A DNA stretch of 40,168 nucleotides, from the IMG/VR virus record IMGVR_UViG_3300027852_000024; one strand, given 5' to 3'. Within the stretch, counting starts at the first letter, position 1; the number at the start of each line of letters is the position of its first letter. Position numbers and translations under genes: made by a program. This DNA comes from a virus. The notes beneath the pieces are model-generated. The model saw nothing but the letters and a program-made list of their open reading frames with translations, had not been told where the DNA came from and made no database searches. This document shows positions 357-40,168 of this stretch, piece after piece.

Positions 357-1214
357 TTATGTGACCTCCACAGAATTGCCCGTCTGTCGTGAATCACCAG
401 ACTGAACCGAAGTCCCTGTTTGCCACGAGTTGCCAGATTGTATTGAATTCTCTGACTGAACAGACTGACCAAACTGGTGTGAGTGACCTCTTTGTATAGA
501 GTGTCCCATCTGCTTGGAGTTTCCAGACTGTTTAGAGTGCCCAGTCTGTACTGAATTACTGTACTGAGCTGAGTAACAATATTGTTGAGAGTTTCCACAC
601 TGCTTCGACTGCCCAAACTGTGTGGAATGACCTGACTGCACAGAGTTTTCGGATTGACTTGAATCACTGTACTGAGTTGACCACCCACACTGCTTCGAGT
701 TTCCAGACTGCATTGAGTGACCTAATTGCCTTGAATCATCTGTTTGAGTTGAGTTGCCAAACTGTCGGGAGCAGTCAAGTTGCTGTGATCGGCCTGATTG
801 AGTTGAAGCTCCATACTGTGACGAACAGTCCATTTGTTTAGAGTAATCAAGCTGTTTAGACTCACCATACTGAATTGAAAAATCCATTTGTTTGGAGTTG
901 CCCATCTGTTTAGAATTTCCATACTGTGCAGAGTTGTCAAAGCTCATAGCATTGTTGCTTGATGTGGCGTTTTCATATCGTCTCGACTCGCCAAACTGTG
1001 AAGCATCATCATACAACCAGCAATCACCCTCCTGACTTAGATTGTGAGCAGTCTCAACCCATCCACCAAGATCACCCTTGCTAATGTTTGAGAAGGATTT
1101 AAGAGCTACTATCCTATGTAGTGTAACAAACTCCTTTGTTGTCGGGTGTTTTATGATCTTGGTCTCACCCGACAATGTGTACTTGTCGGTGCTATTGTTA
1201 GTATTAGTCATCAT
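357..1214 (-). CDS. Hexapeptide-repeat (beta-helix-like) protein; first gene of the leftward early operon
   Basis: AAGGAGGGG before ATG 1214. N-terminal segment ...KGDLGGWVE..NLSQEGDCWLYDDA... resembles the start of phage left-handed beta-helix repeat proteins. It is followed by about 30 consecutive S-x-Q-x-G-x hexapeptides (18-nt DNA period, about 360-940). Confidence 0.75.
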   Translation of the reverse strand: MMTNTNNSTDKYTLSGETKIIKHPTTKEFVTLHRIVALKSFSNISKGDLGGWVETAHNLSQEGDCWLYDDASQFGESRRYENATSSNNAMSFDNSAQYGNSKQMGNSKQMDFSIQYGESKQLDYSKQMDCSSQYGASTQSGRSQQLDCSRQFGNSTQTDDSRQLGHSMQSGNSKQCGWSTQYSDSSQSENSVQSGHSTQFGQSKQCGNSQQYCYSAQYSNSVQTGHSKQSGNSKQMGHSIQRGHSHQFGQSVQSENSIQSGNSWQTGTSVQSGDSRQTGNSVEVT

Positions 1215-1285
1215 TGTGCCCCTCCTTGTGTGTGTTTATGTAATAAATAACAAATAATAAATAATAAAAGTTAATGTTGAGAACA

Positions 1286-1314
1286 GATATAGCACGGTGG
1301 AATCAGTGTGTCAA
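1286..1314 (-). promoter_or_regulatory. Sigma70-type early promoter (TTGACA-17 bp-TATATC) reading leftward
   Basis: -35 at 1309-1314 and -10 at 1286-1291 on the minus strand, about 70 nt upstream of ATG 1214, flanked by AT-rich DNA. Confidence 0.6.
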
Positions 1315-1450
1315 CTATTTTATTGAAAAAAGTTTAAATAATATGCGAATAACATGCGAATAAGGTGTGATTGACACTAGTAGCAGTCCACAACACTTTG
1401 TGTTATCAAGGTGTTACGGTGTTTTACGAGGCTATAACAAAAAGTGTTAT

Positions 1451-1500
1451 TAGGTGTTTTTGGGTGTTTTTGGGTGTTTTTGGGTGTTTTTAGGTGTTTT
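1451..1500 (+). repeat. 10-bp tandem repeat T(A/G)GGTGTTTT x5 (helically phased T-tracts)
   Basis: Read directly from line 1441. Confidence 0.9.
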
Positions 1501-1507
1501 AAGGGGG

Positions 1508-1606
1508 TGATGAGGCTACAACAAAAAGTGTTATTAGGTGTTTTAAGGGGTTGATGAGGCTACAACAAAAAGTGTTATTAGGTGTTTATTAGGTGTTTTA
1601 AGGGTT
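1508..1606 (+). repeat. About 44-bp direct repeat x2 (TGATGAGGCTACAACAAAAAGTGTTATTAGGTGTTTTAAGGGG), each carrying one iteron
   Basis: Copies start at 1508 and 1552. A further repeat pair (GGGCATTTAGGAGAG.TTTACAACAC) lies at about 1610 and 1667. Confidence 0.8.
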
Positions 1607-1984
1607 TATTGGGCATTTAGGAGAGGTTTACAACACTTTTTGTTATGGGTGTTTTAAGTGTTTATCGGGCATTTAGGAGAGATTTACAACACTCTTTGTT
1701 ATTGGAGGCAAAATTGCCTACAACAAATAGTGTTGTAGATTGTGGCTGTGGGGAGCTGAGAGCTGTGTAACACTTTATGCTTGCACGGTGATTTGGATGT
1801 GCATAATTGAGCGTTGTGTGCACACGAGTTGGCTTAAGTTGTTGAAAACATTAATGTTGTTAGTGTTGTTAGTAGATAGTATATTCTTTTAACCTTCTAT
1901 AATAAATCATATACCACATTGTGACACTTTGTACTTTTTTTTTTTAGACCCCCAAATGGAATTGATTTTACTAGCAACACTCAC

Positions 1985-2109
1985 AACATGAATGATATCA
2001 AGCACTTAACTAGACACACTACTCGTCACAAATGAAAAAGGCAAGGAAATCAGCTATTTAACTCACAACATGAATGATATTAGATACTTAGAAGGAACAT
2101 GAATGATAT
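1985..2109 (+). repeat. Three copies of AACATGAATGATAT
   Basis: At 1985-1998, 2067-2080 and 2096-2109; no Shine-Dalgarno sequence precedes any of the ATGs. Confidence 0.8.
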
Positions 2110-2190
2110 CAAGGACTTAGCTGAAACACGCTCAAAACTCACTCCGACTCACTCAGCGGCTCACCTTGAAGCAGTGCGAAGCACTCACCG

Positions 2191-2304
2191 ACACACTCAG
2201 CATGTTTTGTTTACCCACCGACTCACTCAGCTTGATTTGTCTACTCGACACACTCAGCATGTTTTGTTTACTCACCAACACACTCAGCTTGATCTGTTTA
2301 CTCA
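2191..2304 (+). repeat. 57-bp tandem repeat x2 in C/A-rich non-coding DNA
   Basis: ACACACTCAGCATGTTTTGTTTAC at 2191 and 2248; CACTCAGCTTGAT at 2224 and 2281. Confidence 0.85.
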
Positions 2305-2344
2305 GCCACCACTTATGACCGGAGTGCCGACACCACGACACTCA

Positions 2345-2363
2345 GATTGCCACTGCGACAATC
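2345..2363. repeat. PAL-A dyad, degenerate copy (GATTGCCACTGCGACAATC)
   Basis: Non-coding hub; outer arms GATTG/CAATC retained. Confidence 0.6.
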
Positions 2364-2385
2364 TAACTGCCAACACCCAAACACT

Positions 2386-2505
2386 CTGGCTCCACACTGA
2401 ACACCGCCAACCACACCTAACTACCCTGGCTCCACACCGAACACCGCCAACCACACTGCTACTCTGGCTCCACACTGAATACCAAACCACACTGCTACTA
2501 CACAC
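2386..2505 (+). repeat. 38-40-bp tandem repeat x3 (CTGGCTCCACAC.GAA(C/T)ACC...CCACAC)
   Basis: CTGGC at 2386, 2426 and 2464; G-poor stretch. Confidence 0.8.
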
Positions 2506-2582
2506 AGCCTCACCAACACCACCACGTCCACGCTGAGCCACTCAAATGATGTAGCCATGTGTCGGTGAGGGTCAGGATACTC

Positions 2583-2627
2583 GGATTGCCACTGAGCATT
2601 GTGGCAATCCATAACACTTGGTGTTGT
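2583..2627. repeat. Composite module: PAL-A variant (GGATTGCCAC-N8-GTGGCAATCC, 2583-2610) directly abutting an iteron (2611-2627)
   Basis: 10-bp perfect arms; iteron ATAACACTTGGTGTTGT starts at the next base. Confidence 0.85.
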
Positions 2628-2639
2628 AGACAAGGGTGT

Positions 2640-2676
2640 GATTGCCACTGTGACAATCCACAACACTTAATGTTAT
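2640..2676. repeat. Composite module: PAL-A variant (GATTGCCACTGTGACAATC, 2640-2658) plus iteron (2660-2676)
   Basis: Same arrangement as 2583-2627. Confidence 0.8.
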
Positions 2677-2826
2677 TAGACAACCCTAACATTACTCATC
2701 ACCTCTAAGTTGGTTAGAGGTGGTGAATATTATTAGAAAGGCCGGTGGGGGGTAAGAGGGGGCTACCCCCAAAACAGATGAGGCATAATTGAGTATACGT
2801 ACCTACGCAGGCATTCCGTAAAATTT

Positions 2827-2960
2827 CAGCTTTTCTATTTTTCAGCTTTTCTATTTTTCAGCTTTTCTATTTTTCGGCCACATAAAATTTCAGCTTTTAT
2901 ATTTTTCAGCTTTTTATATTTTTCAGCTTTTTCTATTTTTCAGCTTTTCTATTTTTCAGC
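2827..2960 (+). repeat. 16-17-bp tandem array CAGCTTTT(T)CTATTTTT, 3 units (2827-2874) plus 5 units (2891-2960)
   Basis: CAGC recurs at 2827, 2843 and 2859 (degenerate at 2875), then at 2891, 2907, 2924, 2941 and 2957. Confidence 0.9.
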
Positions 2961-2963
2961 AGC

Positions 2964-2983
2964 ACTGCCACCAGTGGCTATCC
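2964..2983. repeat. PAL-A dyad, degenerate copy (ACTGCCACCAGTGGCTATCC)
   Basis: Core GCCACCAGTGGC intact. The right flank reads CTATCCACA, an 8/9 match to the DnaA-box consensus TTATCCACA. Confidence 0.6.
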
Positions 2984-2998
2984 ACAAGTATCCCCTTC

Positions 2999-3035
2999 AT
3001 AACACTTTCTGTTGTGGATTGTCACAGTGGCAATC
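2999..3035. repeat. Composite module in mirrored order: iteron (2999-3015) plus PAL-A variant (GATTGTCACAGTGGCAATC, 3017-3035)
   Basis: Inverted relative to the modules at 2583 and 2640. Confidence 0.8.
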
Positions 3036-3255
3036 TAACTGTTCAGAGTTAGCAATCCCATCCTATTATATAAGCTCACAAGGTGGCGCACAAAACAAGC
3101 CCAGCGGTCAAGCCAGATAGACACACACGGGAGATCCAAAAAATCTCATACCATAGTACACCTTATATATTAAGACTGTCCAGCGGCCCTGTGACAATCA
3201 CCTGCAAGAATCATGCCAAGCCATACCGAAGCAATAAATAAAGATATGCAAAGGC

Positions 3256-3284
3256 TTGACAACACTACCACAATGTGGTATACT
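3256..3284 (+). promoter_or_regulatory. Consensus sigma70-type promoter TTGACA-17 bp-TATACT with TGn extended -10 and palindromic spacer CCACAATGTGG
   Basis: -35 at 3256-3261, -10 at 3279-3284; drives the terminase genes. Confidence 0.75.
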
Positions 3285-3306
3285 GTATTTAATAGATCAA
3301 GACCAG

Positions 3307-3326
3307 GATTGCCACTGGTGGCAGTC
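3307..3326. repeat. PAL-A dyad (GATTGCCACTGGTGGCAGTC) in the 5' leader between promoter 3256-3284 and ATG 3349
   Basis: Read directly. Confidence 0.9.
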
Positions 3327-3348
3327 AAAGAAAAGAGGGGAGACGATA

Positions 3349-3831
3349 ATGGACTTTGATTTTTTAACAGAGCAGATTGATGAAGAAACACAGCCAAAGT
3401 ATGTTGGCCCAAATATGAAGTCAGCGGTTAAGATGACACCACGTAAGTTTGCATCGTCAGTACTTGAGGTGTTTGACAAACTTGGTGGAGTGTCTTGGCT
3501 ATTGATAGAAGCACAAGCAGACCCTAAAGCGTTTCTTGCGTTGCTGTCTAAGATGATACCAAAGAGCGTGCAACTTGATGATCTAGCAGGTATAGCTGTA
3601 ACAGTAGTCGACCAATTTGGTAGACAAGTTAAAGCAGAAGCGGTAAACGCAAATAACCAAACACAAATTGCTGCCACAATACCTTCTGAAGGCACGGAGT
3701 CCGGTCAACTCCAGATTGCCACTGGTGGCAGCCAGACTCCCCGGGCGGTTCTCTCCTCCTCACCTGGGGAGTCACCCCCAACTGATGTTGATATAACAGA
3801 CATATTTAAGAAGGGGGTTGATGATGAATAA
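3349..3831 (+). CDS. Candidate small terminase subunit (160 aa)
   Basis: GAGGGGAG RBS before ATG 3349; lies immediately upstream of and overlaps the large terminase; assigned by position only. Confidence 0.45.
   Translation: MDFDFLTEQIDEETQPKYVGPNMKSAVKMTPRKFASSVLEVFDKLGGVSWLLIEAQADPKAFLALLSKMIPKSVQLDDLAGIAVTVVDQFGRQVKAEAVNANNQTQIAATIPSEGTESGQLQIATGGSQTPRAVLSSSPGESPPTDVDITDIFKKGVDDE
3714..3733. repeat. PAL-A dyad inside a CDS (GATTGCCACTGGTGGCAGCC, encodes IATGG)
   Basis: Read directly. Confidence 0.9.
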
Positions 3832-5254: not shown

Positions 5255-5283
5255 TTGACAAGTATACCACATTGTGGTATACT
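5255..5283 (+). promoter_or_regulatory. Second consensus promoter TTGACA-17 bp-TATACT with spacer palindrome CCACATTGTGG
   Basis: -35 at 5255-5260, -10 at 5278-5283; nearly identical to 3256-3284. Confidence 0.75.
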
Positions 5284-5329: not shown

Positions 5330-5539
5330 ATGAGTGGAGTTTTTGATTTTATATCGAACAAAGGGGATGGTGATGAGATTGCCACTGGTGGCGATCAGAC
5401 AGACCCTGGGGCCATCACGGAAGAAATGAAAGAAGAGGCAAAGAAACTTGCTGCGTCTTCAAAAGGTCTTGACATAGCTGAGTTCCAAAAGAAGCATAAA
5501 ATACACATACTCAATGTTGACGAACTCTTAAAGGGATAA
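5330..5539 (+). CDS. Small acidic hypothetical protein (69 aa)
   Basis: AAGGGAGG RBS; lies between terL and the portal gene. Confidence 0.6.
   Translation: MSGVFDFISNKGDGDEIATGGDQTDPGAITEEMKEEAKKLAASSKGLDIAEFQKKHKIHILNVDELLKG
5377..5396. repeat. PAL-A dyad inside a CDS (GATTGCCACTGGTGGCGATC, encodes IATGG)
   Basis: Read directly. Confidence 0.9.
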
Positions 5540-10575: not shown

Positions 10576-13251
10576 ATGAAGTTTGACGCCATACAAAGTA
10601 GTTTCACATCCGGAGAAGTAAGCCCCAAATTCAGGGGGCAAGTGGAGACAGATGCTTACGCAGCAGGTGTTGGGCGGTCGGAGAATATGATAGTACAACC
10701 GCACGGAGGACTAATATACCGTGGTGGTTTTCATTATGTTGCCGAAGTAAAAGATCCAGCTAAGAAACCTATATTAGTTGGGTTTGATTACAAGAGTTTG
10801 TACTCATACATCTTAGAATTCGGAGAAAATTATATTAGGGTGTATGTGGACACTGAGCAAGTACAGGATGGCGCGTCGGCTTACGAAATAGGATCGACAT
10901 ACGCTCATTCGGAGTTACAAGATTTGTGCTTTAACCAAGACGACGACACTCTGTATATCACACACCCAAACCACCATCCAGCAAAATTAGTAAGAACTGC
11001 TGATGACGACTGGACTCTTTCAGATATCTCTTTTATGTTTGATCCAGTGTGGGCGCTAAAAAACACACCAGCAGATAACGATTGGAAATCAATTTGTTGG
11101 AGTCCTGAGCTATCTCTGTTAGTAATTGTCGCAAGTTCTGGCACAGGAAACAGAGTAATGACTTCACCTGACGGACTAACTGGTTCGCTACAAACTTCTG
11201 CTGCCGACAATGATTGGCGTTCTGTTTGTTGGAGTCCAGAATTATCCTTGTTCGCTGCTGTAGCAAATAACGGGACAAGCGATGGTGTCATGACATCACC
11301 TGATGGGGTTAATTGGACTTCGAGAACCGCTGCTACAGTTAGCGTTTGGGAGTCAGTTTGTTGGGGCGCTACTGCTGGGCTATTCGTAGCAGTATCTGGT
11401 TCTGGGACTGCTAATAGAGTTATGACTTCACCAGACGGGATTACGTGGACTACAAGAACATCTGCTGCTGACAACTATTGGAAGTCAGTCTGTTGGGCCG
11501 CAGAGTTGGCGCTGTTTGTAGTAGTATCTGCGAGTGGTACTGCTGACAGAGTAATGACTTCACCAGATGGAATAACATGGACTTCAAGAACTTCTGCTGC
11601 TGACAGAGGATGGGAGTCGGTGTGCTGGAGTCCTGAGTTGACTCTATTCGTAGCAGTTGCGGGTGATGGAATAGGCGATGGTGTTATGACTTCACCTGAT
11701 GGTATAACGTGGACTTCGAGAACTCCCGCGACTGATACTGTTTGGAAGTCAGTCTGTTGGAGTCCTGAGTTAGGGATATTTGTAGCCGTTTCTGGTTCGG
11801 GTAGTGGTAACAGGACTATGACTTCACCTGATGGTATAACATGGACTACAAGAACTTCACCAGCGAACAATTATTGGGAATCAGTTTGCTGGAGTCCAGA
11901 GTTAGCACTATTTGCCGCTGTTTCGAGTACAGGTGTTGATAATAGAGCAATGACTTCAAGCATCGGAAGGGAGGCGTGGAGAGTCGGCAACTATCCAGCG
12001 CTAAATTTTTTCTTTGAACAGCGTCATATATTCGCATCAACTCCATCTACTCTTAATGGTGTGTGGGGTAGCTGGTCTGGCGAATACAATAATATGACAT
12101 TAGGCACAGGTCTCGACAATCAAGGACTTGAGTTTATTATAAAAGCGGCGGTTAAATTTGTGTGGGCGTCACCTGGTCAAGAATTGATACTTGGTGGGAC
12201 AAACGCAGAGTTTAAAATTGGTGCTAATGCTGCAAACGAGGCTCTTACCCCAAGCAATATTAGGCCGACAATAGTGACGAGTTATGGTAGTTCAGCTAAA
12301 CACCCAGTAAGAATAGACGATAGTGTTGTATTTTTACAGAAAGGCGAAAGGGTATTCAGAAGGCTTGTAGCCAATAATAGATCAGGTGGGTACTCTGATT
12401 CTTATTCTGCGGAGAACTTGACAATACTTAGTGACCATATAGCAAAGAACGGTGTAAACAGCATAACTTATTCTTTACTACCAAGTTCTATTATGTGGGT
12501 AGCACGTACTGACGGAGAACTTGTAGGTCTAACTTACGAACCAGACCACAAGATTTTCGGGTGGCATCGCCACACACTTGGCGGAACAGACTCAAAAGTA
12601 CACTGGGTCGCAACTGCGAATGCTGTAGGTGAGTCACGAAAAGACGAGGTATGGGCAGTTGTAGAAAAGACTATAGATGGCAGTACTGTGTGCTATATCG
12701 AGTATATGGTAGAGGGGCTGTCAGACGAAGACGATATAGAAGACTCATTTTTTGTTGATTCAGGGGTCACGGTGACAGGCAGCCAGTTTACTTCTGTGCC
12801 TGACTTAGATCATTTAGAAGGTGAAGAAGTCAGTATATTCGGCGACGGAGCGATGCAAGCTTCTAAGACTGTATCAGGCGGACTTATAGTATTAGACACC
12901 GCTGTCGACAAAGCACAGATTGGGCAAGCATATGAGGGCGTTGTAGAGACACTACCAATAGAAGGTGGTAACGCAATCGGGACATCACAAGGAGTAATGA
13001 AGAGAATCAATTCTGTGTCCTTACGCTTGGACAGGTCTTTAGGGTTTAGCTTTGGTGGGCTTGTTGGGCCGCTTGACGAGTACTACTTTGGCCCGGCGAT
13101 AATGGACTCACCACTTGAATTGTTTACTGGTGACACAGAACCATCACCATTCTCTGGTGATTTTGACAGATCGTCAGTGTTAAAAGTATCACACGCTACT
13201 CCAATACCTTTTAATTTATTAGCAATAATGTACGAAGCGAGGACAAAATGA
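10576..13251 (+). CDS. Tail tubular protein B-like / nozzle protein with an inserted 7-bladed Asp-box beta-propeller
   Basis: 891 aa; synteny; residues about 170-477 form seven 44-aa repeats W.SVCWSPEL.LFVAV...G...RVMTSPDGITWT.RT. Confidence 0.6.
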   Translation: MKFDAIQSSFTSGEVSPKFRGQVETDAYAAGVGRSENMIVQPHGGLIYRGGFHYVAEVKDPAKKPILVGFDYKSLYSYILEFGENYIRVYVDTEQVQDGASAYEIGSTYAHSELQDLCFNQDDDTLYITHPNHHPAKLVRTADDDWTLSDISFMFDPVWALKNTPADNDWKSICWSPELSLLVIVASSGTGNRVMTSPDGLTGSLQTSAADNDWRSVCWSPELSLFAAVANNGTSDGVMTSPDGVNWTSRTAATVSVWESVCWGATAGLFVAVSGSGTANRVMTSPDGITWTTRTSAADNYWKSVCWAAELALFVVVSASGTADRVMTSPDGITWTSRTSAADRGWESVCWSPELTLFVAVAGDGIGDGVMTSPDGITWTSRTPATDTVWKSVCWSPELGIFVAVSGSGSGNRTMTSPDGITWTTRTSPANNYWESVCWSPELALFAAVSSTGVDNRAMTSSIGREAWRVGNYPALNFFFEQRHIFASTPSTLNGVWGSWSGEYNNMTLGTGLDNQGLEFIIKAAVKFVWASPGQELILGGTNAEFKIGANAANEALTPSNIRPTIVTSYGSSAKHPVRIDDSVVFLQKGERVFRRLVANNRSGGYSDSYSAENLTILSDHIAKNGVNSITYSLLPSSIMWVARTDGELVGLTYEPDHKIFGWHRHTLGGTDSKVHWVATANAVGESRKDEVWAVVEKTIDGSTVCYIEYMVEGLSDEDDIEDSFFVDSGVTVTGSQFTSVPDLDHLEGEEVSIFGDGAMQASKTVSGGLIVLDTAVDKAQIGQAYEGVVETLPIEGGNAIGTSQGVMKRINSVSLRLDRSLGFSFGGLVGPLDEYYFGPAIMDSPLELFTGDTEPSPFSGDFDRSSVLKVSHATPIPFNLLAIMYEARTK
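11083..12006 (+). repeat. Seven tandem 132-bp coding repeats (beta-propeller blades)
   Basis: ATGACTTCACC.GA.GG recurs near 11158, 11290, 11423, 11554, 11686, 11818 and 11950. Confidence 0.85.
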
Positions 13252-24556: not shown

Positions 24557-25342
24557 ATGACTCATTTACGAAAGTATCTAAACACACATATCAGAACACC
24601 TAATATTTGGGGCGGCGGTGCACCTGAACTTGAGTTTACCAATGCAGGTGCAACTCTATCTCCTACTATACAGGTAACCGGAACTCCTGAGATCCTCTGG
24701 ACTTGGAGTGACGGCACAACAGATAATGTTGCTAATCCCGGTGAGAAGACACTTACAGGGACGCATACACTGCTGGTCACACCTTGGTCTGCTGTTACAA
24801 GAATTCTATTCAATGGAGATGGCTTAACTGGGCCATTTGAAACTAAAGAGTGGGAAAATATAGAACATCTTGTGCTCTATGAAAATGCTAATACTGGCAA
24901 GTTTGTCACCTACGCATGGGAGGATATAAAATACTTATGGATTTTTGATAATGATTTTGATGGTGAGCTTGTTACCCACCCATGGGAAAATATGCTGGAA
25001 ATGTGGATGTATGGCCTTGATGTTACAGGTAACTTCGCTTTTCACCCTTGGGTTAACTTAATTAAACTCTATCTACAAGGTAATAATCATTCTTCTGTGT
25101 CTGGTAGTTTGCAAACGCAAATAAAAATGACTGTGCTTTACTTATCTGGTAATAATGTTTCTTCACAGGTAGAAATAGACAAAGTATATTCTGACCTACT
25201 TGTTAATGCTGCTGACGCTGGTCGTGTGTCTGTGTGTACTGTCAACACATCTGGAGCTAACATGTCGGCCCCTTCCGCAGCAGGTATAGCTGATGCAGCA
25301 ACACTGGTAACGACTTACGGTTGGACAGTAACTCACGCATAA
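24557..25342 (+). CDS. Leucine-rich-repeat-like protein (261 aa)
   Basis: GGGAG RBS before ATG 24557; about 24-aa repeats W-E-N-(I/M)-x-x-L-x-(L/I/M)-x-x-N-x-x-x-G-x-(F/L)-V-T and LYLQGNN / LYLSGNN. Confidence 0.55.
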   Translation: MTHLRKYLNTHIRTPNIWGGGAPELEFTNAGATLSPTIQVTGTPEILWTWSDGTTDNVANPGEKTLTGTHTLLVTPWSAVTRILFNGDGLTGPFETKEWENIEHLVLYENANTGKFVTYAWEDIKYLWIFDNDFDGELVTHPWENMLEMWMYGLDVTGNFAFHPWVNLIKLYLQGNNHSSVSGSLQTQIKMTVLYLSGNNVSSQVEIDKVYSDLLVNAADAGRVSVCTVNTSGANMSAPSAAGIADAATLVTTYGWTVTHA

Positions 25343-25353
25343 AGGAGGTAACA

Positions 25354-25746
25354 ATGGCTGTACCTGAAGTAATAACAGAAATAATACAAGATAGACCAAC
25401 TTCTAAGACTCTTACAAAAGAAAAGTCTTGGAGATTAGTTTACGGTAGTAATAATGAGGTCACTAATTTATTCGAAAGCGCTGGTGTGACTTATGCACCC
25501 AACTTCATGAAGTGCTTTGAGACAAATGAAGAAGCTGGTCTTTATATCGAAAGCGAATATTTAAAATGTCATAAGGCTGTGATAAAAGACGGAGTTGTTG
25601 AGAGTTTAACAGAGATTAAAACTAACATGGCCGTAACATTAAAAATAGGTGAATACGCTTTCTACTCTGCTGATCTCGATGATTTTAGAACACACGCACG
25701 TGAACAAAAGTGGGATATTGAGAAGGTTATAGATATACTGTACTAA
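25354..25746 (+). CDS. Hypothetical protein (130 aa), last gene of the rightward arm
   Basis: AAAGGAGG RBS before ATG 25354. Confidence 0.6.
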   Translation: MAVPEVITEIIQDRPTSKTLTKEKSWRLVYGSNNEVTNLFESAGVTYAPNFMKCFETNEEAGLYIESEYLKCHKAVIKDGVVESLTEIKTNMAVTLKIGEYAFYSADLDDFRTHAREQKWDIEKVIDILY

Positions 25747-25756
25747 ACCTAAACAC

Positions 25757-25792
25757 AAAAAGCAGACTGCCACCAGTGGCAGTCTGCTTTTT
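25757..25792. terminator. Bidirectional intrinsic terminator built on an extended PAL-A dyad (AGCAGACTGCCACCAGTGGCAGTCTGCT)
   Basis: 12-bp arms, A5 upstream and T5 downstream; sits exactly where the converging arms meet (stops at 25746 and 25794). Confidence 0.85.
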
Positions 25793-25793
25793 C

Positions 25794-26651
25794 TTACTTT
25801 AACTTTGCCTCTACATCCTTCAACCAGTCTTTATCTATCGACTGCATCTTAGGAACCCCACGTACTTTAGTATAATCTTGGAATCGTATTTTTATAGTTT
25901 CGCCAATAAAATATTCTCTGTGTTTCCACAGCAGATTCCGTTGATTATCTGTCGGGCCGGAACCTACTGAGAACCATTCGTTTCCATAAGTTACACAAGT
26001 GAAAGATCCGAAAGTACCCTTTGGTTCGCCTTCTATCGACTTTTCTTCTTCAACATCTATTATACTAAAAGACTCGCTTACTCTTGGCTTCAACTTTAGT
26101 AGTGTTGATACTTTCCTCCGCTTGTACCCAGCTTTATATTCGCGTATGATTACACCCTCATAACCCTGGGTTACAAAAGCATCGTAGTATCTCTGTAATC
26201 CTTCTAAAGTGTACACTTGATACACGGGAACGTATTTTAAGTATCTGAAATTATACTTCTTAAAAATCTTACCTAAGTATCTGCTCCGTTCGTATTGTTT
26301 GTTGCTTGCAACTACGTCGAACACATGGTACTGTATCAACTTATGGTCAGGGTGTATGTTTTTTGTCCTGCTTACTATACTCCTGATCTCACTATGCCGC
26401 ATACCATGCCTGTACAACTCACCATCTAACTCAATGTTCATAAGCTTTGATTTAGCTATTTCATCCCCAATATGTGGCACACTGATTATTTCCTTACAAC
26501 CAGAACTTAGTAATCTTATATCCTCGGGGGTTATCTTAGCCCTCAACCTGTCACCCTCTATCTTTGCTTGGACGAGTACAGGCTTTTCCATCTTGTTAAA
26601 AAGTTTCTCAGTAAACATTGAAGCCAGCATTATACCAGTTCTTTTACTCAT
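25794..26651 (-). CDS. ATP-dependent DNA ligase
   Basis: Motif I KIEGDR, motif III ELDGELY, motif IV EGVIIRE, motif V LLKLKP. Confidence 0.85.
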   Translation of the reverse strand: MSKRTGIMLASMFTEKLFNKMEKPVLVQAKIEGDRLRAKITPEDIRLLSSGCKEIISVPHIGDEIAKSKLMNIELDGELYRHGMRHSEIRSIVSRTKNIHPDHKLIQYHVFDVVASNKQYERSRYLGKIFKKYNFRYLKYVPVYQVYTLEGLQRYYDAFVTQGYEGVIIREYKAGYKRRKVSTLLKLKPRVSESFSIIDVEEEKSIEGEPKGTFGSFTCVTYGNEWFSVGSGPTDNQRNLLWKHREYFIGETIKIRFQDYTKVRGVPKMQSIDKDWLKDVEAKLK

Positions 26652-31019: not shown

Positions 31020-31206
31020 GTATTAGTTCACTCGCAAGAGCAGTTGATATCTGCTCAACATATTGTATGTGGTAATCAACAGTGTGTTCACGAACCCATT
31101 TAGCTGGTGATATATCAGTCACTACAGCTTTATATTCAACAGAAAATTTCAGATCCATGAAGTCCCTTAAATCACATCTGTAGGATATAAACCATCGTTC
31201 TTCCAT
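30973..31206 (-). CDS. Hypothetical protein (77 aa)
   Basis: ATG 31206 overlaps the VRR-NUC stop (TAATG) and is preceded by GGGGAG. Confidence 0.5.
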   Translation of the reverse strand: MEERWFISYRCDLRDFMDLKFSVEYKAVVTDISPAKWVREHTVDYHIQYVEQISTALASELIHGGAGVPAEYYDTDN

Positions 31207-31508
31207 TATATACGCTTCTCCCCTTTTAGTCTTTCCTCCCAATAATCTATGATATCGTCAATCATTTGCTTAGAGTTCACCCAATACGTCCACTGGTCTA
31301 AATTAGTCAATCGTGAGGCTTCTCTACTCTGAGCGTCTGTTAAATACTTGTCAGTTGCTTTACACTCAACGAAAAAGACGTGACCATGCACAACACATAG
31401 CCTGTCGGGTACAGCCCTTCTGCCAGGTGACGTGAACTTGTAAGCCATACCTTTTAGTTTTGATCGTACTTTATCACATAGATATTTTTCTATTTGTTTT
31501 TCAAGCAT
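31206..31508 (-). CDS. VRR-NUC domain nuclease
   Basis: PDRLCV...VFFVECKA fits the D-(n)-E-x-K motif; 100 aa. Confidence 0.75.
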   Translation of the reverse strand: MLEKQIEKYLCDKVRSKLKGMAYKFTSPGRRAVPDRLCVVHGHVFFVECKATDKYLTDAQSREASRLTNLDQWTYWVNSKQMIDDIIDYWEERLKGEKRI

Positions 31509-34602: not shown

Positions 34603-34623
34603 TTTTCACTCCTTTAATATAAG

Positions 34624-34655
34624 AGCAGACTGCCACCAGTGGCAGTCTGCTTTTT
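34624..34655. terminator. Extended PAL-A hairpin identical to the one at 25761-25788; its T5 tract lies on the plus (antisense) side only
   Basis: AGCAGACTGCCACCAGTGGCAGTCTGCT followed by TTTTT. In the sense (minus) direction it is followed by CTTATATT and then the RBS of the next gene. Confidence 0.6.
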
Positions 34656-34715
34656 AAGTTTGTCCTACATAAAGTTGAAGTCTGCTTTTTAAGTTTGTCC
34701 TACATAAAGTTGAAG
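34646..34715. repeat. Perfect 35-bp tandem duplication (TCTGCTTTTTAAGTTTGTCCTACATAAAGTTGAAG x2)
   Basis: 34646-34680 equals 34681-34715; copy 2 holds the SSB stop and its last codons. Confidence 0.95.
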
Positions 34716-37248: not shown

Positions 37249-38352
37249 CTATATACCTAAACTGTCGATACCTTCTGATTCTGGTTCCAGTTCCGGTTCC
37301 GGTTCTGGTTCGTCAAGGGTCTCAACGACAAGGGTAATTCCTTCCTTTATCCGGTCGATGTCCTCAACACTCAGGTTTGATCTCTCCCTGGTAATCACAT
37401 CCAGCACCTTTTCAAGCGCAATCTGTACTTTTTCAACTGCCTCTTTTGGCGCTGGTTTATTAGCAGTGGAATCCTCTCTGGCTTTCTGCATTGCTTTCTG
37501 CATTGCTTCCTTTTTGCCAGCGACTACCTCAGCAATTGCCGCAAGTGGGTCAGGGCCGTTTTCATTATCCTTACTGATTTTTACAGCTTCTTCAACTTCG
37601 GAGCGTGTAAGATTTTCTTTCACTATCTTATCCGCCACCTTCTGCTGAGTAACTTCATCGAACATTTCGACAACTTTACTCTTGCCTTTGCCATCTACAC
37701 TCTTGGTCACAAGCTTTTGAAACCTGTTAGCAAGGGTCACAGAAGGTAACTTTTGGGCCAATTTAAAAGTTGCTTCGTCGTTTTCCAAGACCTGCAGAGC
37801 GTCCTGAATAGTCTGCCTACTCCATGTGTCCCCGAGGAACTGAGCTATAATTGAGGCTCCTACCCCGTTGTTACGCATACGTGTGAAAGACCGGGAGTCA
37901 ACTTTCAATGCTCCTGAATCACCAACTTTTTTCAAGAACTGATCCTTGTCTTTGCTTGCTCTCACAAGCCCTTCAAGATGCGCCTGTAACTGTAGAACTG
38001 TCATGCACAAGTTCTGTGGGTTTTCTCCCCAGTCGTCTTTGTTCTCCTGGGCAAATATCTTAAGCATCCTCTCATTTGTCAACTGATGTTCTGGCCGTAC
38101 ATTGATTTTTATCTCTTTGTAGTCCTCATTTCCATTGGCTACAATGCGTTTTAGAGCCTGTAATCTGTGGTGGCCGTAAGCAAGCTGTATTTTACCGTCT
38201 TTGGTTTGTCTGGCGAGCAGATTTTCCCAAAAAGAAGTGTCCCTGATTGACTCAGCAAGTGCCGCAATTTTGTCGTCGTCATAAACATAAGATTCATTGT
38301 TACGGTACGGATTGTCTTCTATTCTGTCAAGTTCAATTCTATTGAAACCCAT
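37249..38352 (-). CDS. ParB N-terminal-domain (ParB/Srx-fold) protein with a central HTH-like segment
   Basis: KIQLAYGHHRLQALKR fits the ParB box; VGASIIAQFLGDTWSRQTIQDAL looks like an HTH; AAGGA before ATG 38352 (the track start 38409 is TTG). Confidence 0.7.
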   Translation of the reverse strand: MGFNRIELDRIEDNPYRNNESYVYDDDKIAALAESIRDTSFWENLLARQTKDGKIQLAYGHHRLQALKRIVANGNEDYKEIKINVRPEHQLTNERMLKIFAQENKDDWGENPQNLCMTVLQLQAHLEGLVRASKDKDQFLKKVGDSGALKVDSRSFTRMRNNGVGASIIAQFLGDTWSRQTIQDALQVLENDEATFKLAQKLPSVTLANRFQKLVTKSVDGKGKSKVVEMFDEVTQQKVADKIVKENLTRSEVEEAVKISKDNENGPDPLAAIAEVVAGKKEAMQKAMQKAREDSTANKPAPKEAVEKVQIALEKVLDVITRERSNLSVEDIDRIKEGITLVVETLDEPEPEPELEPESEGIDSLGI

Positions 38353-38407
38353 GATATTATTTCCTTTTTTGTGTTTAAGAATTTTTTTTAAAAAAATTAA
38401 GTCGGTC

Positions 38408-38440
38408 AAAGTTTAAAGTCTAAAGTTTAAAAGTCTAAAG
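38408..38440. repeat. 14-15-bp direct repeat AAAGTTTAAA(A)GTCT x2 plus a partial third, upstream of the ParB-like gene
   Basis: Read directly. Confidence 0.75.
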
Positions 38441-38484
38441 TACGCACAATTATCATCGACCACCTCCCCTCTATAATGTTCTAT

Positions 38485-38506
38485 AATGTTCTATAAATAG
38501 AACATT
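38485..38506. promoter_or_regulatory. PAL-B palindrome AATGTTCTATAAATAGAACATT, preceded by direct half-site repeats CTATAATGTT x2 (38471-38490)
   Basis: Perfect 10-bp arms; lies in the 150-nt gap upstream of the ParB-like gene. Confidence 0.8.
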
Positions 38507-38634
38507 CAATTCTTTATAATATAGATCGCACCAGCGACTATTATTATAAGCACTATGTTGGATATTACTATCTGTAATGCTATCGCACACAAAACTACGA
38601 GTGCATCTCTGGCTGTTTCAAATACGTTTTTCAT
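38506..38634 (-). CDS. Tiny membrane protein (42 aa; alternative start 38694 gives 62 aa)
   Basis: GGGGAG before ATG 38634; hydrophobic LVVLCAIALQIVISNIVLIIIVAGAIYII. Confidence 0.45.
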   Translation of the reverse strand: MKNVFETARDALVVLCAIALQIVISNIVLIIIVAGAIYIIKN

Positions 38635-38644
38635 TGTCTCCCCT

Positions 38645-38666
38645 AATGTTCTATTTACAGAACATT
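38645..38666. promoter_or_regulatory. PAL-B palindrome variant AATGTTCTATTTACAGAACATT
   Basis: One arm mismatch; immediately upstream of GGGGAG/ATG 38634. Confidence 0.7.
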
Positions 38667-38671
38667 GCAGT

Positions 38672-38797
38672 CTAATAAATTGATCTGTCGTCATTCAACA
38701 ATGTGAAAAGTCCGGCCAAACAAGCAATTAAATATATCGGCCAATAAAATGCTACGGACACGGTGACCAAAAGAATTGTTTTAAATATATCTTTCAT
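38672..38797 (-). CDS. Tiny membrane protein (41 aa, MKDIFKTILLVTVSVAFYWPIYLIACLAGLFTLL...)
   Basis: AGGAG RBS before ATG 38797; translated by hand; below the ORF-track cut-off. Confidence 0.45.
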   Translation of the reverse strand: MKDIFKTILLVTVSVAFYWPIYLIACLAGLFTLLNDDRSIY

Positions 38798-38819
38798 TGT
38801 TTGCTCTCCTACATGCTGA

Positions 38820-39461: not shown

Positions 39462-40168
39462 TTAAACAGCGAGCTGAATATCCTCGTCAAGATTATTAAG
39501 GTGCGCTATTGTTGTTGTCAAATGTTTTTCAATAGCCGCAAGTTGTTCAACATTGAACCGGCCCGTATTGTACTTTGTCTTGACCATGTTGCAGATAAAA
39601 CCGATTTGTTCGGCCACTTCACTTGCTGTCAGTTCATCCGGTTTAACGATGTTGTCAAAGCCTCCTTTGTTAGGTCTTAAATTATCTCCTGTCCAGTCGA
39701 GTTCGTCGAGTTCGTCGAGTTCGTCGAGTTCGTCGAGTTCGTCGAGTTCGTCGAGTTCGTCGTCGTCTAAATCACCACGCAAGAACATATCAGTAAGTTC
39801 CTTGACGCTTGTCTCTTTAATTTCGGGCACTACGGGTGTAGGCGCAAGCTTTGGCGTTTCGGTCTTTAGCTTTGGCCTGGCCCCAACACCGTCCTTTTTA
39901 CTTAGCTCTTTTTCAATCTGTTCACATGCTAAACAGTCTTCTTTTAAAGCTTTGGCCCATTTGTTAACCAAGTAAGTTGGATTGCCTGATTTAATAGAGT
40001 ACTCTGCAACAAACGCCTTGATGTGCTCAAAGTTCTTATCAAGTTTTCTATACTCTGACCTCTCAATCCTGTTCAGTCCCGGAAAATGCTCTTTAACCAT
40101 TGCAGTCAAATCCTGCTTTTTCAGTTCGAGATCAGCACCTTTTCTATAGAGCAAGTTCAGAGCAAACC
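39462..40168 (-). CDS. C-terminal part of the junction-spanning acidic repeat protein (continues from 1-326)
   Basis: ORF is open to the right window edge; contains (Asp-Glu-Leu)x7; see feature 1..326. Confidence 0.7.
   Translation of the reverse strand, partial: FALNLLYRKGADLELKKQDLTAMVKEHFPGLNRIERSEYRKLDKNFEHIKAFVAEYSIKSGNPTYLVNKWAKALKEDCLACEQIEKELSKKDGVGARPKLKTETPKLAPTPVVPEIKETSVKELTDMFLRGDLDDDELDELDELDELDELDELDELDWTGDNLRPNKGGFDNIVKPDELTASEVAEQIGFICNMVKTKYNTGRFNVEQLAAIEKHLTTTIAHLNNLDEDIQLAV
39697..39759 (-). repeat. 9-bp tandem repeat TCGAGTTCG x7 encoding (DEL)x7
   Basis: Counted directly. Confidence 0.9.

Follow-up and report, generated by a model that had tools for sequence, protein, structure and literature searches.

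The 40,168-nucleotide stretch analyzed here (the window; IMG/VR record IMGVR_UViG_3300027852_000024) holds the genome of an uncultivated T7-like podovirus in which two gene arms diverge from positions 1215-3348, the sole large gene-free gap of the genome, hereafter called the hub. The plus strand from 3349 to 25746 is a T7-like podovirus structural module encoding, in order, the presumed small terminase subunit (terS), TerL, the portal, the scaffold, the major capsid protein, tail tubular proteins A and B, internal virion proteins, and the tail fibre; terS was called from its position and matched, weakly, just one unannotated PHROG family. The minus strand, running from 25794 across the assembly junction to 1214, forms the early/replication arm, with genes for a DNA ligase, a 911-aa DUF5906 primase-helicase, an SNF2 helicase, a family A DNA polymerase (PolA), a single-stranded DNA-binding protein (SSB) of the Enc34/gp2.5 type, a DUF2800 exonuclease, a ParB-like protein, and small early proteins. 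No RNA polymerase gene was found in the phage genome, and neither an integrase nor a repressor nor ParA was detected. Bases 1-127 are identical to 40042-40168, so that the assembly is circularized and the genome in fact measures 40,041 bp. This 127-bp overlap, which falls within the gene of a 301-aa early protein, is an artefact of circular assembly, and the ends of the window are uninformative as to where the phage DNA physically ends.

A preliminary description of this DNA had presented the hub as a 2.1-kb region devoid of credible genes and saturated with repeats, and both parts hold. Using Tandem Repeats Finder (TRF) and a repeat finder, we recovered the repeat systems it listed within a few bases, and together they make up 54% of the hub. 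Besides the phased 10-bp T-tract array, they comprise a 44-bp direct repeat (2.4 copies, 1484-1587), a second direct repeat in the left part, described as 57 bp and found as 2 copies of 56 bp (1592-1702), 30-nt copies of a motif beginning ACAACATGAATGATAT (3 copies, 1979-2119), a 57-bp C/A-rich tandem (2 copies, 2183-2304, which can alternatively be read as 4 copies of 30 bp), a 38-40-bp C/A-rich tandem (3 copies, 2386-2498), and an array given as 8 units of 16-17 bp, here 8.4 units of 16 bp. A run described as T12 at 1935-1946 is T11 at 1935-1945. The arrays are arranged head to tail without spacers, which is not a CRISPR-like repeat-spacer organization. The features of the hub are given below with coordinates, strand where one is assigned, and content; A denotes a 20-bp palindrome (GATTGCCACTGGTGGCAATC), B a 17-bp dyad, and the relatives named by L numbers are introduced after the list.

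1286-1314, minus strand: predicted leftward early sigma-70 promoter P_L, TTGACA-17-TGcTATATC, with the same promoter 5' of the first early gene in L005, L186, L193, and L194
1364-1406: degenerate A-type arms GATTGACAC...GCAGTCC abutting the first B dyad, together the left A+B composite (repeat finder)
1390-1736: seven B dyads, AYAACAC-N3-GTGTTRT, in both orientations, within the 44-bp and 56-bp direct repeats (TRF, repeat finder, dyad scan)
1444-1500: phased T-tract array GTGTTTTTGG, 10 bp x 5.7 (TRF), predicted to be intrinsically bent DNA
1846-1950: AT-rich core of low duplex stability, with the T11 run inside; the local GC skew switches sign here
1899-1927, minus strand: partial leftward copy of the late-promoter core, TGTCACAATGTGGTATATG, preceded by A11 (repeat finder)
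1979-2119, plus strand: three copies of ACAACATGAATGATATCARGCACTTA (repeat finder)
2135-2332, plus strand: C/A-rich, G-poor tandems of 30-bp and 57-bp units; L186 has other simple C-rich tandems at the same position
2345-2369: A variant GATTGCCACTGCGACAATC, then TAACTG (repeat finder); the same element is present in L186
2373-2518, plus strand: C/A-rich tandem of 38-40 bp, 3 copies (TRF, repeat finder)
2584-2676, plus strand: two A+B composites, 2584-2627 (A with an 8-nt spacer) and 2640-2676 (repeat finder, dyad scan)
2686-2736, plus strand: inverted repeat with 23-nt arms and a terminator-like score on the plus strand
2741-2775, minus strand: G-rich run and GGGGGCTACCCCCAAAA, which on the minus strand reads TTTGGGGGTA and then C runs; the most conserved box of the hub
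2824-2960: array of 8.4 units of 16 bp, TTTCAGCTTTTCTATT, equivalent to TTTTC every 8 bp (TRF)
2963-2982: A palindrome (genome-wide palindrome scan)
2999-3061, minus strand: B+A composite (inverted copy of 2640-2676, 89% complementary), then a TAACTGTTCAGAGTTA dyad and a third A arm
3174-3199, minus strand: A-type arms with a 12-nt spacer, directly downstream of the sigma-54 motif and present in 9 of 10 aligned relatives
3203-3219, minus strand: sigma-54-type promoter motif TTGGCATGATTCTTGCA, with -24 GG and -12 GC, no gene downstream, and pointing into the hub; the sole exact TGGCAY-N5-TTGCA match in the genome
3256-3284, plus strand: predicted rightward sigma-70 promoter P_R of the structural operon, TTGACA-17-TGgTATACT, containing the dyad TACCACAATGTGGTA at 3266-3280
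3307-3326: A palindrome, approximately 16-35 nt downstream of the predicted P_R start and 5' of the terS ribosome-binding site (palindrome scan)

One candidate for a coding sequence, a 145-aa open reading frame (ORF) at 2099-2536, sits in the G-poor tandem repeats, where stop codons are scarce, and it yielded no tblastn match in the relatives and no Pfam match; the other hub ORFs likewise lack homologues and Pfam matches. Similarity between hubs is seen in all six frames and is therefore at the DNA rather than the protein level, and gene callers run on four relatives left the hub empty as well. An Rfam scan of the hub returned nothing at the gathering score or at E <= 1, a tRNA/tmRNA scan returned none, and blastn of the hub against GenBank phages gave zero matches.

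TerL and the ParB-like protein served as anchors for searches of IMG/VR, JGI, ENA, Logan, and NCBI (a 15-mer scan of IMG/VR for the composite element was flooded by chance matches). These yielded numerous related contigs, a good number of them 38-45 kb long, and 15 distinct hubs were compared. Within the family, identity is 69-87% for TerL and 47-81% for the ParB-like protein. All 15 hubs are gene-free, with lengths of 0.96-2.1 kb, and the order of their elements is constant, although the repeat sequences differ and some hubs lack some of the elements. From the early-gene side, the shared order is as follows: early promoter, A+B composite, B-dyad array, AT-rich core, and approximately three copies of AATGATATCARGCACTTA; an A site followed by TAACTG, low-complexity C-rich tandem repeats, and at least one A+B composite; a G-rich/GGGGnTACCCCCAAA box, a short tandem array, an A site, and a B+A composite followed by TAACTGT; and finally A-type arms with a long spacer, the sigma-54-type motif, the late promoter, an A site, and terS. 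The block at 2999-3061 is the best conserved among the relatives, and the motif AATGATATCAGGCACTTAA occurs three times in L186 too, with related copies in L171, L005, and L194. The closest relative, L186 (TerL 87%), illustrates how freely the repeats change, with 14 perfect TAACACTAAGTGTTA dyads and a 15-bp x 14 array, versus 7 dyads and the 16-bp x 8 array in the window. The hub is thus a conserved trait of a family of uncultivated T7-like podoviruses. One could regard it as a hypervariable, slippage-prone spacer with little function besides carrying two outward promoters, as the repeat units, periods, and copy numbers differ freely among relatives and some phages lack some modules. We consider this very improbable: the order of elements is conserved over the 15 hubs, and the sigma-54 motif, the TTTGGGGGTA box, the A+B+TAACTGT composite, and AATGATATCARGCACTTA are conserved in sequence. 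A tRNA-like GCGGG...CCCGCACCA element of L009 was rejected, as it is not conserved. A further relative, L193 (NCBI JAAEPM010002073.1, 43,460 bp), is near-complete and was binned in a metagenome-assembled genome labelled Gammaproteobacteria, the sole, weak hint at a host; its contig begins within hub repeats, adjoining an A site and the early promoter.

By their sequences and their conservation, two predicted host sigma-70 promoters fire outward from the hub, P_L into the early genes and P_R into terS, TerL, and the structural genes. Both had been noted in the preliminary description as consensus promoters. This fits the rightward one, which agrees with 11 of 12 consensus positions and has an extended -10 element, and does not fit the leftward one in full, which fails the T6 rule of the scanner, yet is conserved. 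P_R has a twin at 5255-5283 on the plus strand (GCTTGACA-N4-TACCACATTGTGGTATACT), directly 3' of TerL, with an A site within a 69-aa ORF 94 nt downstream, and a near-B dyad, TACCACAWTGTGGTA, lies inside both P_R and the twin. The suggestion that the hub is a master control region is well supported: both outward promoters are conserved, and the hub has the densest clustering of two putative protein-binding dyad types as well as a conserved inner sigma-54-type promoter. The preliminary description had overlooked this last element, together with the family-wide layout and the genome-wide network of dyads.

The five dyad variants previously noted in the hub are present but not specific to it, being local copies of the genome-wide palindrome A. 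At up to 3 mismatches, A has 18 sites in the genome versus 0 expected, spanning 3307-37227 at intervals of 1-3 kb (for example, 7211, 9361, 10546, 14358, 20396, and 22717), of which about 10 are intergenic, many of these immediately 5' of the ribosome-binding sites of structural genes. The hub carries five more variants with changed spacing and in all holds approximately seven copies or variants, with 16 more between and within genes. The palindrome is kept in all relatives, most of which have an A site between P_R and terS, and an A+B composite equivalent to that at 1364-1406 starts the iteron array of L186. An exact scan of GTDB genomes gave just four single, unrelated matches, so A is not a host repeat and offers no clue to the host. 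Among 223 distinct A sites, the half-sites vary independently, the position-3 pairs (TA 108, CG 23, TG 38, CA 46) occurring at counts near the product of the marginal frequencies; this favours a duplex DNA site for a dimer, and the reading of A as a hairpin under selection was rejected. Two copies, at 3714-3733 and 5377-5396, lie in frame within ORFs and both give IATGG in apparent protein linker regions. Extended versions of A, AAAAAGCAGACTGCCACCAGTGGCAGTCTGCTTTTT, at 25755-25794 and 34619-34656 resemble bidirectional intrinsic terminators, and the first of them sits precisely where the two arms converge.

A candidate protein for these sites is encoded at 37249-38409 on the minus strand. Its structural model (predicted local distance difference test [pLDDT] score of 87) combines a ParB N-terminal (CTPase-fold) domain with a helix-turn-helix (HTH) domain and matches Noc, ParB, and KorB structures over both domains with E = 2e-7 to 3e-4 and approximately 195-300 aligned columns (best E = 2e-7, with alignments of approximately 260-300 columns); the PDB matches include KorB 8qa8 and 8qa9, and the sequence carries a GHHRLQA motif. 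No ParA-like partner matched among the phage proteins scanned, and the protein is therefore nearer to KorB or Noc than to a partition system. We infer that it binds palindrome A. KorB of RK2 is a ParB-family CTPase clamp with 12 dispersed palindromic operators. The KorB-OB/KorA-OA system of RK2 and the phage share a protein of the ParB N-terminal plus HTH fold, dispersed copies of one palindrome that are both promoter-proximal and distant, and a second dyad type directly adjacent; they differ in that the virus is a lytic-type phage whereas RK2 is a plasmid, that the search for a ParA/IncC partner brought up none, that the palindrome has 20 bp rather than 13, and that binding and CTP dependence are putative here. 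By this likeness, A would be the operator of a phage ParB/Noc/KorB-fold protein acting as a KorB-like global regulator, with sites in the late-operon leader and by the early promoter.

The B dyads correspond to what had been described as seven 17-bp iterons at 1390-1736. Seven do lie there, but the hub total is 10, in both orientations, including extra copies at 2611, 2660, and 2999; a search at up to 3 mismatches gave 12 matches versus 0.94 expected. The 10 dyads form two clusters about 1 kb apart, and dyads of this type are confined to the hub in the window phage, L186, L005, and L007. Their number ranges from 10 here up to 18 in relatives, often directly beside an A site, and their sequence differs by lineage: AACAC..GTGTT in the lineage of the window phage, AAAACA.TGTTTT in L007, and TTAACA..TGTTAA in L009. 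Each phage has the same B variant in its left array and in the composite adjoining A, which implies a co-evolving, lineage-specific binding protein. A second dimeric protein of this kind probably binds the B dyads; with near-B dyads overlapping the late promoters, A and B together could build a large protein-DNA complex on the hub.

Repeated dyads beside AT-rich DNA also recall replication origins. The hub is compatible with an origin and is where one would most likely lie, the AT-rich core at 1846-1950 together with the iterons being the best candidate. At least three repeated putative initiator sites (the 10 dyads) lie beside an AT-rich element, as in iteron-type origins, and the hub has three of the least stable duplex stretches of the genome, with low stability at 1846-1950 and 2812-2960. 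Cumulative GC skew has its minimum near the hub and its maximum at the convergent junction at about 25.7 kb; this skew is confounded with gene orientation and is inverted inside the hub relative to the arms. Like the lambda ori (four dyad iterons plus an AT-rich region) and P4 ori/crr, the hub combines repeated dyads, bent DNA, and an adjacent AT-rich stretch, and its two separated B clusters recall P4 ori and crr, the phage having a DUF5906 primase-helicase; unlike in these origins, the sites occur in both orientations with irregular spacing and in up to 18 copies in relatives, and no initiator gene is identified alongside. The alpha protein of phage P4 is a primase-helicase that binds its own origin, a precedent that no result here ties to the DUF5906 protein.

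These features allow the hub to be read as primarily an iteron-type origin, with a phage initiator on its B dyads, which could be an early protein or else the 911-aa DUF5906 primase-helicase, the T-tract bending the DNA, the 1846-1950 core or the 2824-2960 array melting, and transcription from an internal promoter activating or priming replication, as at the T7 primary origin or lambda ori. The 10 dyads in two clusters, the 10-bp phased T-tract, the unstable stretches, the skew extremes, and the DUF5906-domain protein all agree with this, as does the covariation of the dyad sequence within each phage, which would be expected of an initiator and its sites. Weighing on the other side, the skew is confounded as noted, arrays as large as that of L186, with 14-18 dyads, are more usual at centromeres or as titration arrays than at origins, DnaA-box-like ATCCACA sequences at the A/B joints were rejected as DnaA boxes on account of their lack of conservation in relatives, and the 301-aa early protein is poorly modelled (pLDDT 58) with no fold match. 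We hold this reading to be possible but tentative; it is compatible with, rather than exclusive of, the explanation that we prefer below.

The inner promoter lies at the right end of the hub. TTGGCATGATTCTTGCA fits the TGGCAC-N5-TTGCW consensus, with GG and GC exactly 10 bp apart, and 14 of the 15 hubs have the motif, flanked in each by the late promoter on one side and the A-type arms on the other and invariably facing inward; several relatives carry it as TTGGCACGATTCTTGCA. Its invariant columns read TTGG.A.G...CTTGCA and its spacer is free, as expected of a promoter. At a distance of 110-470 nt downstream from the motif, 14 of 15 hubs have TTTGGGGGTA with at most 1 mismatch, and a tandem array stands at the position of the 2824-2960 array in 10 of 15, usually TTTTC-based, with unit and period varying. 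Sigma-54 promoters are, to our knowledge, rarely reported in lytic phages, and a search of the literature on sigma-54 promoters in phages found nothing directly relevant.

A conserved promoter without a downstream ORF might make an RNA. The unit from approximately 3190 to approximately 2740 on the minus strand would then give a regulatory noncoding RNA of 200-470 nt that ties up an RNA-binding protein of the host or the phage through its repeated GAAAA-type units and A-type stems, as may be suggested by the A-rich units repeated on the transcribed strand in 10 of 15 hubs and by the conserved box downstream at a fairly constant distance. However, RNAalifold downstream of the motif predicted A-type stems alone, with next to no covariation (1 both-sides change in 13 predicted pairs), the independence of the A half-sites indicates no selection for base pairing, Rfam gave no match at E <= 1, no terminator follows the box, and the arrays of different phages share no RNA motif. 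An RNA product of this kind is accordingly improbable. A reading of the arrays as a CsrA (GGA) or Hfq sponge was rejected outright, the motif not being common to different phages.

A different precedent for a gene-less inward promoter comes from genome ends. In the T7 record, the terminal repeat contains CCCCCATAGGGGG and is followed by ACCTAAAG arrays, and the leftward host promoter A0 and the gene-less phiOL lie upstream of the early promoters. Like the hub, the T7 junction, which comprises the SRL/SRR short-repeat arrays, phiOL/phiOR, A0, and the early promoters A1-A3, has more than 1 kb of gene-free DNA between the packaging end and the early genes, a G5/C5 inverted repeat, short C/A- or T-rich repeat arrays, strong host early promoters directed outward, and gene-less promoters directed inward. 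The differences are that a terminal repeat is putative here, the inward promoter is of the host sigma-54 type instead of one for a phage RNA polymerase, transcription of the terminase genes leads away from the hub, the G/C box reads G5..C5 here versus C5..G5 in T7, and the A/B dyad network is found in the phage here and not in T7. A T7 class II pause motif, ATCTGTT, 5' of the G box occurs in the window only and was rejected as a coincidence.

The cobaviruses (Lentibacter phage ICBM1 and SIO1; Zobellviridae) offer a second comparison. The direct terminal repeats (DTRs) of cobaviruses, 159-173 bp long, lie between the gene modules in DNA free of ORFs and have a conserved 5' end that is rich in G+C (PMC6775973); in the record of ICBM1, the DTR is the point from which both arms run apart. 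As here, they are podoviruses without an RNA polymerase gene and with a T7-like structural module, and their two arms start out from an ORF-free junction in opposite directions and meet at a bidirectional terminator; the conserved C-run box at the 5' end of their DTR (CCACCCCCTAACCCCCCTTCCCGCCCC in ICBM1) resembles that on the minus strand of the window (GCCCCCTCTTACCCCCCACC). Unlike the cobaviruses, the window phage has a TerL and a portal without detectable protein similarity to theirs and a replication module of DUF2800, Enc34 SSB, PolA, and DUF5906 proteins, and its hub is twice as long as the cobavirus region and far more repeat-rich. An ORF-free inter-arm region is conserved in the family, but no ends could be located in it; a G+C-rich box is found in 14 of 15 hubs, with an adjacent short-repeat array in 10 of 15. 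By these analogies, the hub is plausibly the likeliest site of the genome ends. Among the contig ends of relatives, two are no more than about 40 nt away from the G box, a suggestive placement that was spotted post hoc.

A more economical account would limit the hub to transcription control, with divergent promoters and KorB/KorA-like operator arrays, and place headful packaging at a pac site elsewhere, for instance inside terS. The promoters and the A and B sites are the sole elements with direct sequence support, the A sites are promoter-proximal, TerL could be assigned to no packaging class, and a circular assembly fits a circularly permuted genome equally well. Left unexplained are the invariant TTTGGGGGTA box, the gene-less inward promoter, and the fast-evolving arrays at a fixed position; moreover, 1-2 kb is far beyond the needs of promoter control, and in characterized podoviruses whose two arms are laid out likewise, the genome ends lie at this junction. 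We therefore regard control alone as unlikely, though it deserves more weight than the noncoding RNA.

The explanation that we prefer, and that we judge to have a slightly better than even chance of being correct, combines these functions: the hub would be a transcription-control region that is at the same time a concatemer junction of the T7/cobavirus type, with terminal-repeat or packaging signals and probably an origin. Its parts concerning termini and origin rest on analogy. The hub would form the noncoding junction between the early/replication arm and the structural arm, with outward transcription from P_L and P_R, a KorB-like regulator on A, and a second protein on B. From the other side, the sigma-54-type promoter would read inward through the A-type arms and the TTTTC-type array to the TTTGGGGGTA/C-run box. 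This unit would correspond to the right end of a T7/cobavirus concatemer junction, with its gene-less promoter, its arrays of short repeats, and a G+C-rich box where the terminal repeat begins, and would place the genome ends or the packaging start near 2740-2830; the AT-rich core with the iterons would be the candidate origin.

Several observations weigh against this explanation. No terminus was detected, the assembly being circular with its 127-bp overlap within a gene, and the contig ends of relatives that fall in the hub are scattered, mostly over tandem arrays but also in the AT-rich core, in an A arm, and near P_R. BLASTP found no similarity of TerL and portal to those of ICBM1, and TerL matched no Pfam terminase class; its PHROG and PDB matches, the generic phrog_2 and, weakly, the P74-26 TerL, leave the packaging type unassigned. 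No sigma-54 activator (Sigma54_activat type) was found among the phage proteins, although a host activator is possible. The sigma-54 module is missing from L186, the closest phage by TerL, and arrays are missing from 5 of 15 hubs, so neither is indispensable. The TGGCA of the sigma-54 motif recurs in the A arm, and the motif could instead be a protein-binding site. Finally, the pairing of A with the ParB-like protein and of B with a second protein is in both cases a step that we infer.

Other parts of the genome drew attention beside these subjects. The first early gene (357-1214, minus strand) encodes a 285-aa protein with a YdcK-like N-terminal region followed by approximately 25 degenerate heptad repeats (xSxQxGx), without a homologue at the same position in relatives. 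Tandem repeats of 132 bp (44 aa), in about 4 copies of 72-77% identity, lie at 11290-11958 within the tail tubular B-like gene. A small endonuclease-like ORF at 31206-31508 on the minus strand (phrog_93) and an ORF at 25321-25746 on the plus strand with a weak GIY-YIG (SegE-like) match may be homing-type nucleases. The gap at 38410-38819 was considered as an alternative origin and rejected, as it encodes small membrane-type ORFs. At 38470-38680, among the most AT-rich spots of the genome, a third dyad family, ATGTTCTATTTATAGAACAT, occurs with 2.7 copies of TCTATAATGT around two small hydrophobic ORFs upstream of the ParB-like gene.

Two features appear unusual, the gene-less sigma-54-type promoter and the genome-wide palindrome network probably tied to a ParB-family protein. 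At their most far-reaching, they would mean that T7-like podoviruses without their own RNA polymerase use a gene-less host sigma-54 promoter to transcribe into packaging or terminal-repeat signals, as a counterpart of the T7 phiOR/concatemer-junction mechanism, and that a KorB-like ParB-family clamp on approximately 25 palindromic sites works alongside a second, rapidly evolving regulator, the hub being filled with the dyad arrays of the latter. As a whole, we consider this proposition speculative and rather doubtful. If the preferred explanation holds, at least 15 natural variants of a phage junction are at hand for comparison, in which packaging signals, origin, early/late switching, and a ParB-family regulator come together within 1-2 kb. 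A gene-less sigma-54 promoter aimed at a DNA box would link enhancer-dependent transcription of the host to the processing of phage DNA, and a phage-wide operator network of the ParB/KorB type would extend a mechanism hitherto worked out on plasmids. The TTTGGGGGTA box and the sigma-54 motif can also serve as landmarks by which the metagenomic genomes of this group may be oriented and their start coordinate set.

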